Source: a virus
Length of the DNA stretch: 64,000 bases
IMG/VR virus record: IMGVR_UViG_3300021599_000885
Strand: one strand, 5' to 3'
In this document: piece by piece, positions 14,033 to 48,546 of the stretch
Numbering within the stretch: the first letter of the stretch is position 1
How the letters are laid out: the number at the start of each line of letters is the position of its first letter
Made by a program: the position numbers and the translations under genes
Notes under the pieces: model-generated
What the model was told of the DNA's origin: nothing
What the model saw: the letters and a program-made list of their open reading frames with translations, nothing else
The model's database searches: none

Positions 14033-14106
14033 TACCCACAGTCGGATTCGAACCGACACTGGAGGAGTTTTAAGCTCCCTATCTCTGCCTGTTGGATTAT
14101 GCGGGC
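14033..14106 (-). tRNA. trnL: tRNA-Leu(UAA), short variable region
   Basis: GCCCGCA..GGGAG-CTTAAAA-CTCCT..GTCGG-TTCGAAT-CCGAC-TGTGGGT-A cloverleaf; no encoded CCA. Confidence 0.85.
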
Positions 14107-14111
14107 GTAGG

Positions 14112-14185
14112 TGCAGGTTGCGAGGATCGAACTCGCCTTCGCAGAATTATGAGTTCTGAGCATTCTACCAGATTGCTAAACCTGC
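14112..14185 (-). tRNA. tRNA with CAU anticodon (elongator Met or lysidine-type Ile2)
   Basis: GCAGGTT..CAGAA-CTCATAA-TTCTG..GCGAG-TTCGATC-CTCGC-AACCTGC-A. Confidence 0.85.
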
Positions 14186-47118: not shown

Positions 47119-47292
47119 TTACTCACTCAGCATATTTCTACATACCCGTTTACAAGTTTGTTGGTCATCATCACATTCTATTAGACAGTTAAAATAATCA
47201 TTGACTAACTCCATTTCATCATTACAACGGTCAACTGTTTGCTCAAAGTGTCGCCATTCTGCAAGTTGATTGTAAGAGACAAGGTTGTGCAT
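47119..47292 (-). CDS. small Cys-containing cyanobacterial/cyanophage protein
   Basis: MHNLVSYNQLAEW...YFNCLIECDDDQQTCKRVCR. Confidence 0.7.
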   Translation of the reverse strand: MHNLVSYNQLAEWRHFEQTVDRCNDEMELVNDYFNCLIECDDDQQTCKRVCRNMLSE

Positions 47293-47429
47293 AATGTCCT
47301 CCACGCACAAGGATAATCATAACAAATAATTTTCGCTCATTTGTATGACCTCATTATTCTACCATATGTATATTAGATATGTTACTTAGGATACAAAAAT
47401 TTATGCCTATTAGAGAAACTTATAGACAT

Positions 47430-47457
47430 AAAAAAAGAGGGAGAGTCAATCTCCCTC
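47430..47457 (-). terminator. intrinsic terminator ending riboswitch/DUF4278 operon
   Basis: GAGGGAGA-TTGAC-TCTCCCTC followed by U7. Confidence 0.85.
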
Positions 47458-47601
47458 AAACTTAAACATTTTTTCAAACCACTCATCTAGATGAATAGTA
47501 TAACAGGACCAATAATTACAACCCCTGTATGTTAGTTGATAGCAAGCAGGAGGTCTATTGTCCTTATCCATATCATCATAATGATATTTGTAGTTGTCCA
47601 T
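47446..47601 (-). CDS. small protein with LTYRG motif (DUF4278-related, 51 aa)
   Basis: MDNYKYHYDDMDKDNRPPACYQLTYRGCNYWSCY...; TAATG coupling; read manually. Confidence 0.65.
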   Translation of the reverse strand: MDNYKYHYDDMDKDNRPPACYQLTYRGCNYWSCYTIHLDEWFEKMFKFEGD

Positions 47602-47687
47602 TATTTGTCCAACCACTGAACATACATTGATAAAAATACGGTTGTTAAAGCAATCGCAGCAGTAGTTGATACCATGAACTGTACCAT
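47601..47687 (-). CDS. 28-aa single-pass membrane microprotein
   Basis: MVQFMVSTTAAIALTTVFLSMYVQWLDK; TAATG coupling at both ends. Confidence 0.6.
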   Translation of the reverse strand: MVQFMVSTTAAIALTTVFLSMYVQWLDK

Positions 47688-47785
47688 TACCTTGCTCCTA
47701 CTAATTGTGCTAGTTGGGCTTGATGACGACGCTCTTCTTTTTGTTTTTGCTCTTTAATGATTTGCAAGAAGTTTAGTTTCTTCAT
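47687..47785 (-). CDS. 32-aa basic helical microprotein
   Basis: MKKLNFLQIIKEQKQKEERRHQAQLAQLVGAR; AAGGAGG RBS, ATGA coupling. Confidence 0.65.
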   Translation of the reverse strand: MKKLNFLQIIKEQKQKEERRHQAQLAQLVGAR

Positions 47786-47919
47786 TTGTGCCCCTCCTTT
47801 ACATACTTAACACCACGATAGGTTTCGTTGTATTGTTGGGGTTGTTGCATCATCTGTTGTTGATATGCGATACGCTTTTCGGTATCGTATTCAGCACCAC
47901 GATAAACTACTTTCGACAT
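47782..47919 (-). CDS. DUF4278-like protein (45 aa)
   Basis: MSKVVYRGAEYDT...ETYRGVKY (two YRG motifs); AGGAG RBS; directly 3' of the riboswitch-like RNA. Confidence 0.8.
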   Translation of the reverse strand: MSKVVYRGAEYDTEKRIAYQQQMMQQPQQYNETYRGVKYVKEGHK

Positions 47920-47953
47920 TGGTTTTCTCCTAAAGAAATGAGATGGTTAGTCC

Positions 47954-48125
47954 CGTTCCTTCAGTCGGCTTTTGCGTCTATGAAACAACCTTTCTTTGTG
48001 ACTTGTTCAATTTCTAATATGAGACCAATTTTTTCATGGTCAGTGACGAAGTTACTAGCATTAACTCTACTAATGAGAAGTTGTGCCTGTAAGCAAGATA
48101 AAAAGAGTTGCTCCATAGATGAACG
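47954..48125 (-). ncRNA. glutamine riboswitch (glnA motif)-like unit 2 with ORF in P2 loop
   Basis: ATCGTTC-A-TCTATGGAGCAAC...GTTGTTTCATAGA-CGCAAAAGCCGACTGAAG-GAACG. Confidence 0.75.
47961..48116 (-). CDS. 51-aa riboswitch-embedded protein
   Basis: MEQLFLSCLQAQLLISRVNASNFVTDHEKIGLILEIEQVTKKGCFIDAKAD; read manually; homologous to 48165-48371. Confidence 0.7.
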   Translation of the reverse strand: MEQLFLSCLQAQLLISRVNASNFVTDHEKIGLILEIEQVTKKGCFIDAKAD

Positions 48126-48128
48126 ATC

Positions 48129-48381
48129 CGTTCCGAGTCGGCTTACTTGCGTCCTATTCAGTTTTTAGCACCTTTGAACAACATCCTTTCGGAGTTCTAA
48201 TAGCAATCGGTCTTCTCTTCTTTGGTCTACTACATCGTCGTTTTTAACGATGTCCATTAGTTCCCACGCTGCGTCACAACTTATAGTCACAGGATATGGA
48301 TTCTGTATAAGTCGTGGCGTTGAAACAGAAAGAAGTGGAACCCATGCTAAAAGCAAAAGTGCTTTAGTCATAGGATGAACG
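48129..48381 (-). ncRNA. glutamine riboswitch (glnA motif)-like unit 1 with ORF in P2 loop
   Basis: CGTTC-A-TCCTAT...ATAGGA-CGCAAGTAAGCCGACTCG-GAACG. Confidence 0.7.
48165..48371 (-). CDS. 68-aa riboswitch-embedded protein with signal-peptide-like N-terminus
   Basis: MTKALLLLAWVPLLSV...ISCDAAWELM...LLLELRKDVVQRC. Confidence 0.7.
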   Translation of the reverse strand: MTKALLLLAWVPLLSVSTPRLIQNPYPVTISCDAAWELMDIVKNDDVVDQRREDRLLLELRKDVVQRC

Positions 48382-48437
48382 TTAGGGGATTATTATACCC
48401 CTATTCATCCTATATAGGTCTTATATGTGTGAAAACA

Positions 48438-48451
48438 GTAACATAAGATAC
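48438..48451. promoter_or_regulatory. putative NtcA binding site
   Basis: GTA-ACATAAGA-TAC (GTA-N8-TAC), between two TATAAT boxes (48466-48471 and 48392-48397, minus strand). Confidence 0.65.
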
Positions 48452-48546
48452 TAAATGGTATCTATATTATACTAAAAAGCGTGAAGATTTGTGAAAACCC
48501 TCACGCAAGAAAATTTTGCCGGAAAAATTATTAGCGATATTGGAAA

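Follow-up and report, generated by a model that had tools for sequence, protein, structure and literature searches.

Glutamine riboswitches, tandem arrangements of them and single cases in phages are already known. In the crystal structure, the linchpin of the aptamer is a ligand-induced G23-C60 pair (PMC11477058, PMC6212724), and the glutamine contacts C1:G59, G22 and C58 have been named (PMC6698751). For the leader of Synechocystis gifB, it was proposed that the C60 region pairs with the Shine-Dalgarno sequence (PMC6212724). A survey of tandem riboswitches counted 157 glutamine doublets, and arrangements with an intervening ORF were left out by design (PMC9481103). In phages, glnA elements have been reported for S-CREM1 (PMC9964418), for two cyanophage aptamers (PMC5473149) and for Melnitz (PMC9004378); in the accessible parts of these reports, they were given as ordinary Rfam matches that are rare in phages, with no mention of interlocking or of loops filled with genes.

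The locus described here shares P1, P2, J2/3, the E-loop, P3 and the linchpin, as found in its outer core, with glutamine-I (RF01739) and the gifB leader (PMC6212724). With the latter, it also shares NtcA input, a DUF4278-type gene downstream and an anti-RBS helix formed with the 3' end of the aptamer. It differs from both in that its core is composed of halves of two repeats spanning approximately 430 nt, with a second, permuted core in P3; in addition, its linchpin is C-G, its P2 loops hold whole protein genes and it is encoded by a phage. Pocket nucleotides, the C...G letters at the long-range pair, the absence of an E-loop (here in the inner core) and a short DUF4278-like peptide downstream are shared with glutamine-II (Downstream-peptide, RF01704; PMC6698751).

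The window, that is, the whole stretch of 64,000 nucleotides that was analysed, is by its sequence part of a T4-like cyanophage genome. Its DNA matches were Synechococcus and Prochlorococcus myoviruses, and the best-matching sequencing runs were freshwater metagenomes. On the minus strand, the locus is bounded by a promoter region (~48500-48385) and a terminator (47457-47437), with thyX-like and phoH-like genes immediately downstream. A preliminary description had noted two glnA-like units here, each with a gene in its P2 loop, and all the elements that it listed were found where it had placed them. The core motif of the units occurred twice in the window and in none of 100 shuffled sequences, and the folding z-score of the region was -2.56. 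The features are as follows.

48466-48495, minus strand: upstream match to a sigma70-type promoter (11/12), a consensus match alone
48438-48451, minus strand: NtcA-type box GTA-N8-TAC, by sequence
48384-48402, minus strand: short inverted repeat with the -10 box (48397-48392); predicted start immediately 5' of outer P1
48381-48377, minus strand: P1-type strand of unit 1, being the 5' strand of outer P1 (C1 = 48381; partner 47958-47954)
48375-48370 with 48157-48152, minus strand: P2a (unit 1); its 5' strand overlaps the ATG of ORF1, and its 212-nt loop contains ORF1
48371-48165, minus strand: ORF1, 68 aa, hydrophobic N-terminus, two invariant Cys
48144-48151, minus strand: outer J2/3, with G22 (48150), linchpin C23 (48149) and the 5' half of the E-loop
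48136-48143, minus strand: first strand of P3, in an 8-bp duplex with 47970-47963 (two C-A mismatches), common to both cores
48121-48135, minus strand: inner permuted core, with a short J3/1, the P1 hairpin (48133-48129 with 48125-48121) and linchpin G (48128)
48125-48121, minus strand: P1-type strand of unit 2
48119-48106 with 47990-47977, minus strand: P2b (unit 2), 13-14 bp with 3 G-U; its 5' strand contains the ATG of ORF2, and its 3' strand lies inside ORF2
48116-47961, minus strand: ORF2, 51 aa, phrog_504, two-helix hairpin with two invariant Cys; its C-terminal codons and stop double as aptamer
47971-47976, minus strand: inner J2/3 (C23' = 47974), without the 5' half of the E-loop
47953-47970, minus strand: second strand of P3, J3/1 and 3' strand of outer P1, with the 3' half of the E-loop (47962-47959), P1 (47958-47954) and linchpin G60 (47953)
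47964-47956, minus strand: 5' strand of the predicted OFF helix, within the 3' strand of the aptamer
47938-47930 (region 47927-47938), minus strand: 3' strand of the OFF helix; it overlaps the Shine-Dalgarno sequence at 47931-47927, which belongs to the DUF4278-like gene
47782-47919, minus strand: DUF4278-like (IF17-like) gene, 45 aa, phrog_5049, the putative first regulated gene
47446-47785, minus strand: three further overlapping micro-ORFs of 32, 28 and 51 aa
47437-47457, minus strand: intrinsic terminator

Pattern scans of IMG/VR returned hundreds of related loci, which were parsed to 298 distinct double units; these loci are kin and were deliberately enriched for variants, and counts among them stand neither for independent events nor for population frequencies. 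Most matches of some pattern scans were due to chance (for example, L174-L186 and L190-L192) and were discarded. Scans for other P1 variants found none.

The preliminary description had read the locus as back-to-back aptamers, with P1 (CGTTC/GAACG) paired inside each unit. The 5' half of the E-loop was found in unit 1 only and the 3' half in unit 2 only; neither a single unit nor the inner core held a complete one, and as a sequence motif, it was complete only in the outer core formed across the units (48147-48144 with 47962-47960). Because the halves were divided between the units, strand exchange was suspected, and covariation then confirmed it. The outer linchpin, between position 23 of unit 1 and position 60 of unit 2, was Watson-Crick in 298/298 loci (207 C-G, the type of the window, and 91 G-C). 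The inner linchpin, between position 23 of unit 2 and position 60 of unit 1, was paired in 290/298 (272 C-G, 18 G-C) and unpaired in 8. Within units, linchpin pairing was found in just 194 and 193 of the 298. Two variable positions of P3 paired across units in 296/298 loci each, with three to four pair types (A-U, G-C, C-G, U-A), and within units in 131/298. The P1 strands were almost invariant, and the compensatory change of P1 pair 5 to U-A across units in three loci (L187, L189, L193) may have been a single event.

The cross-unit pattern was kept in the 125 loci that have ORF2 between the partners, with the outer linchpin paired in 125/125. Among haplotypes (n = 22), 16 were fully paired across units and 2 within units. 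On the ORF2 tree, the state of the linchpin changed at least three times, on well supported branches, and no mismatched outer pair was seen; therefore, one ancestral event is insufficient as an explanation. The nested covariation of linchpin, P3 and P1 across units, with four pairs covarying independently, contradicts independent back-to-back aptamers, and the assignment of P1 to single units was wrong, both P1 and P3 being paired otherwise. The folding energies of the nested and tandem folds (-112.6 vs -109.2 kcal/mol) barely discriminated between them and were given no weight.

Judged by this covariation, the RNA is one nested structure. In its outer core, unit 1 supplies the 5' half and unit 2 the 3' half (48381-48144 plus 47964-47953), and together they read as a complete glutamine-I aptamer. 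The inner core reads as a circularly permuted one, nested in the outer P3 and having its own covarying linchpin and no E-loop; since the pocket nucleotides and this linchpin are kept, it is probably a second pocket. We regard as nearly certain the architecture of an interlocked double aptamer with two protein genes in its P2 loops.

The identity of the element as glnA/glutamine-I had been proposed from motif resemblance, together with the expectation that long loops would hide it from standard covariance-model scans. That expectation was borne out, since Rfam returned nothing relevant at the locus, whether the window or the 3' half alone was scanned; a score of the native sequence below the RF01739 gathering threshold is to be expected from loops of 130-210 nt. 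The sole above-threshold Rfam matches in the window were two tRNA genes (14033-14185). Natural compact-loop relatives stood in for loop-deleted constructs in the Rfam glutamine (glnA) test. Compact relatives with the same core scored 35.1-38.8 bits, the Rfam gathering score being 35; the proposed identity thus passed loop shortening narrowly. In S-CREM1, the same double unit occurs in compact form, under the annotation of a glnA riboswitch. A P1 helix with C1:G59 and G2:C58, together with G22, is present in both cores. The three-way junction with P2 and P3 is also present, with covariation of P2 and, across units, of P3 (296/298).

The passengers were real protein-coding genes, as the preliminary description had held for both P2 loops. 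Their pooled dN/dS values (0.32 for ORF1 and 0.27 for ORF2) indicate purifying selection, length changes were in frame, and in ORF1, for which 251 homologues were collected, pN was below pS in 91/91 pairs. Among the 298 loci, 108 had two short P2 hairpins, 96 an ORF in unit 2 only, 60 an ORF in unit 1 only and 24 an ORF in both; 10 were incomplete. The passengers have in common a short hydrophobic start and two cysteines. Neither ORF1 nor ORF2 matched a family in Pfam or NCBIfam, and the Atlas matches of the passengers were unnamed viral clusters only. The structure model of ORF1 was poor (pLDDT 57), and that of ORF2 was a helical hairpin (pLDDT 84) without a distinctive match in the PDB (best Z 5.2). 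The pattern of two cysteines suggests, at the sequence level, that ORF1 and ORF2 are paralogues; the comparison of their profiles was not significant (hhalign probability 8-10%), and another family of unit 1 did match ORF2 (77%). Atypical passengers were observed in unit 2 of L106 and L151, and the one in L151 clustered with a family of unit 1; this suggests transfer of passengers from one loop to the other. P-SSM2 (L003:1500-1730) carries a 49-aa passenger gene without annotation in its GenBank record.

Conservation of P2 pairing across the ORFs had been named as a point to check, and it was seen in the related loci. Pairs 1-5 of P2b were paired in 96-100% of loci, with C-G, U-A, A-U and U-G types. 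Covariation across ORF2 gave 4.7 of 5 pairs, compared with 3.7 for shuffled partners, and 0/5000 shuffles reached the observed value; for P2a it was weaker (38/5000 shuffles). In other ORF families of unit 1, pair 4 of P2 was mismatched in some loci (76% paired), a mismatch that one marine family often shows. When the ensemble of the whole RNA was predicted, the pair probabilities of both P2 stems were 0.83-1.0, except for the outermost, 14th pair of P2b (0.2). Both ATGs lie in or overlap the 5' strand of P2, and the offset of the ATG in P2 was 3-7 in 209/209 ORF-bearing units. The ORF2 stop (TGA, 47963-47961) lies inside the conserved 3' segment, and in 119/125 loci the stop, TGA or TAA, fell on the identical letters of the aptamer. 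Aptamer variants that destroy this stop were rarer in loci with ORF2 (5/125 vs 65/173; Fisher p 6e-13, kinship ignored).

The DUF4278-like gene had been named as the first downstream gene, and the following analysis supports it as the target. Its match to DUF4278 (PF14105) was sub-threshold (E 0.0014; 19.4 bits, below the 25.3 cut-off), and in most loci a YRG-motif peptide comes next after the RNA. The RNA stands in leader position, with a platform predicted over the RBS of this gene. The OFF helix was predicted in 127 of 143 distinct platforms of the linchpin type of the window, compared with a mean of 31 and a maximum of 39 after shuffling, and its probability in the window was 0.95-1.0. Loci of the G/C type use a different helix, in which C60 and the next bases pair with the Shine-Dalgarno sequence. 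That two different helices cover the same Shine-Dalgarno sequence points to a translational ON switch. For the 3' strand of the aptamer, pairing in the outer core and pairing on the Shine-Dalgarno side are mutually exclusive. In the ligand-free model, the OFF helix forms alongside P2a, P2b and the hairpin of inner P1.

The whole is best explained as a phage translational glutamine ON riboswitch consisting of an interlocked double aptamer with genes in its P2 loops, an explanation that we consider likely. In the absence of glutamine, the RNA would form both P2 stems, the hairpin of inner P1 and the OFF helix, and translation of the downstream micro-operon would be poor. Glutamine would occupy one or both pockets, possibly cooperatively via the P3 common to both. 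Once bound, the ligand would favour the nested fold, drawing in the 3' strand and leaving the RBS of DUF4278 accessible, as in the gifB proposal. Passenger translation would need an open P2 and would be easiest during transcription, when the distant 3' arm has not yet been made. A ribosome translating ORF2 would have to pass P2b, then the inner junction and P3, and would terminate within the OFF helix, 42 nt ahead of the DUF4278 start; on its way it would take the liganded fold apart and would likewise expose the downstream site. Bound glutamine would damp initiation on ORF2, and the NtcA box would provide a second nitrogen input of either sign.

It had been suggested that folding of the aptamer buries the start codon of its own passenger. 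This idea is weakened and right only in part, because the P2 stems are predicted without ligand as well; prediction of P2 in both states weakens direct control of the passenger starts by ligand. Of the elements that could switch in the models, the helix covering the RBS of DUF4278 stands out most clearly. Since 108/298 loci are free of passengers, the switch does not need them.

Functional coupling of the switch to passenger translation appears to us slightly short of an even prospect. The passengers may instead be mere hitch-hikers of an interlocked glutamine switch, housed in a size-tolerant loop behind a strong nitrogen-linked promoter, with cross-talk limited to occasional interference. 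Such loop tolerance is suggested by the occurrence of all four layouts (neither ORF, either one or both) and by the engineered loop that took the place of L2 in the crystal construct (PMC5393176). The prediction of P2 without ligand also fits. The constant offset of the ATG, kept across several diverged ORF groups, and the fixation of the ORF2 stop within the switching strand argue against passive carriage, although few origins could explain both positions. Moreover, a ribosome on the ORF2 stop cannot coexist physically with either fold. Because the stop lies in the switching strand, translation and sensing would have to compete on one RNA, and because P2b, the inner junction and P3 all lie in the path of an ORF2 ribosome, its passage would be incompatible with both folds. 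We consider passive carriage a serious contender that is nevertheless somewhat doubtful.

Leader-peptide attenuators and uORF-linked riboswitches offer a parallel to such competition, since translation of an upstream ORF can alter the RNA structure that controls a downstream gene. In those systems, including fungal TPP uORFs (PMC10043782), the ORFs are intronic or flank the aptamer, whereas here conserved genes of 50-70 aa lie inside the aptamer, and one stop codon falls in the switching strand. The most far-reaching version of our interpretation is put forward tentatively: T4-like cyanophages may widely carry a cooperative two-pocket interlocked switch with exchangeable P2-loop genes and with translation wired in, glutamine lowering translation of the passenger and raising that of DUF4278, and the terminating ORF2 ribosome bypassing the ligand.

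The fold might be real and interlocked while responding to another ligand, or it might serve mainly as an element of transcript processing or stability. The linchpin is flipped relative to cellular glutamine-I, and the inner core has no E-loop, which would suit such a role; so would the RNA-library contigs of relatives, whose depth, although a poor guide to expression, was greater over unit 1 than further downstream. However, all of the named glutamine contacts were invariant, although these letters belonged to the search anchors and their invariance among relatives is thus no independent result. The DUF4278-like target, the NtcA box and the gifB-like anti-RBS platform are likewise in keeping with the glutamine circuit as known. 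A glutamine-binding RNA, the glutamine-II crystal construct (PMC6698751), also carries the flipped C...G letters where the linchpin lies, as read from its printed sequence; by this analogy and the named contacts, the flip should be no obstacle to glutamine. The glutamine-II model (RF01704) itself gave 15.3 bits for the compact S-CREM1 form (gathering score 33) and had no match in the window, where the glutamine-II pseudoknot and downstream P2 were not identified. We judge another ligand or role unlikely, and glutamine as the ligand with ON control of DUF4278 quite probable.

Two tandem aptamers that each fold on their own, as in pseudo-cooperative glutamine riboswitches, are scarcely credible here even though such tandems are common (PMC9481103), Rfam aligns single compact units slightly above threshold and the nearly invariant P1 strands permit either pairing on paper, because pairing within units fails where pairing across units holds (linchpin in ~105/298 loci and P3 in 167/298, or 35-56% of loci), each unit has only half an E-loop, and the probability of P1 within a unit was 0.0, compared with 0.83-0.95 for the inner P1 hairpin. 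The pseudo-cooperative tandems (PMC2864571; PMC9481103) also have two glnA-like repeats before one gene. The cellular tandems that were compared consist of two complete independent aptamers, whereas here the repeats are interlocked; among cellular glnA aptamers, including the SAR86 and SAR116 tandems, each was complete, with G23-C60 within the unit in 46/47. Two complete independent aptamers without an ORF between them, the hallmark of the pseudo-cooperative class, were not found at this locus.

No description of the interlocked fold or of P2-loop genes was found in the searchable literature, whose scope did not include two primary glutamine-riboswitch papers. From its sequence, the locus as a real, new architectural variant of the glutamine-I riboswitch is strongly supported. 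With a loose cut-off (E up to 1), 295 cyanophage records matched a compact query, and in 56 of these the match extended along most of the query. The view that phages rarely use riboswitches is challenged by these 295 loose matches, compared with the mere two cyanophage glutamine aptamers reported in PMC5473149. The locus likewise challenges the assumption that aptamers are compact non-coding domains, under which the tandem survey discarded cases with intervening ORFs (PMC9481103). The interlocked layout appears to be common in cyanophages and to be missed by standard RNA scans, and here it heads a small nitrogen-linked operon; searches that tolerate loops may reveal more hidden riboswitches. 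The fold would be a natural domain-swapped double aptamer, which predicts cooperativity. The locus also offers a handle on how cyanophages sense host nitrogen through NtcA and glutamine, and it may steer glutamine synthetase.

The nitrogen link extends to the promoter region. NtcA sites are known in cyanomyoviruses generally (PMC3037559). An exact NtcA box was found upstream in 215/273 related loci (shuffle mean 8.7, maximum 18), mostly 44-46 nt from the aptamer, and the -35 box was at 36-38 nt. The -35 box is degenerate in the window and consensus-like among relatives. RNA-library contigs of relatives from three studies were deep over 47681-48390 and near zero above ~48390, with neither strand nor start resolved; this drop-off is consistent with a transcript start near the aptamer. 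An inverted repeat of variable sequence was observed around the -10 box in most loci (mean -6.2 vs -1.1 kcal/mol for shuffled sequences). A late-promoter-like word (TAAATA/TATATA) directly past the -35 box was present in 213/273 loci, a count without shuffle control, and early and late transcripts may have different 5' ends.

Several minor observations concern the downstream operon. The 32-aa ORF (47687-47785) matched phrog_545 (E 6e-4). The N-terminal part of phrog_545 resembles this ORF and its C-terminal part the 45-aa ORF (47782-47919), in reversed order, and in the relatives L116 and L143 both parts occur in one peptide. The 51-aa ORF (47446-47601) contains an extra YRG motif. Directly past the riboswitch operon, there is a second NtcA-like box (47381-47394, one mismatch) with an extended -10, and behind it lies a gene for a Cys-rich protein of 57 aa (47119-47292; phrog_665, E 1e-28) with its own terminator.
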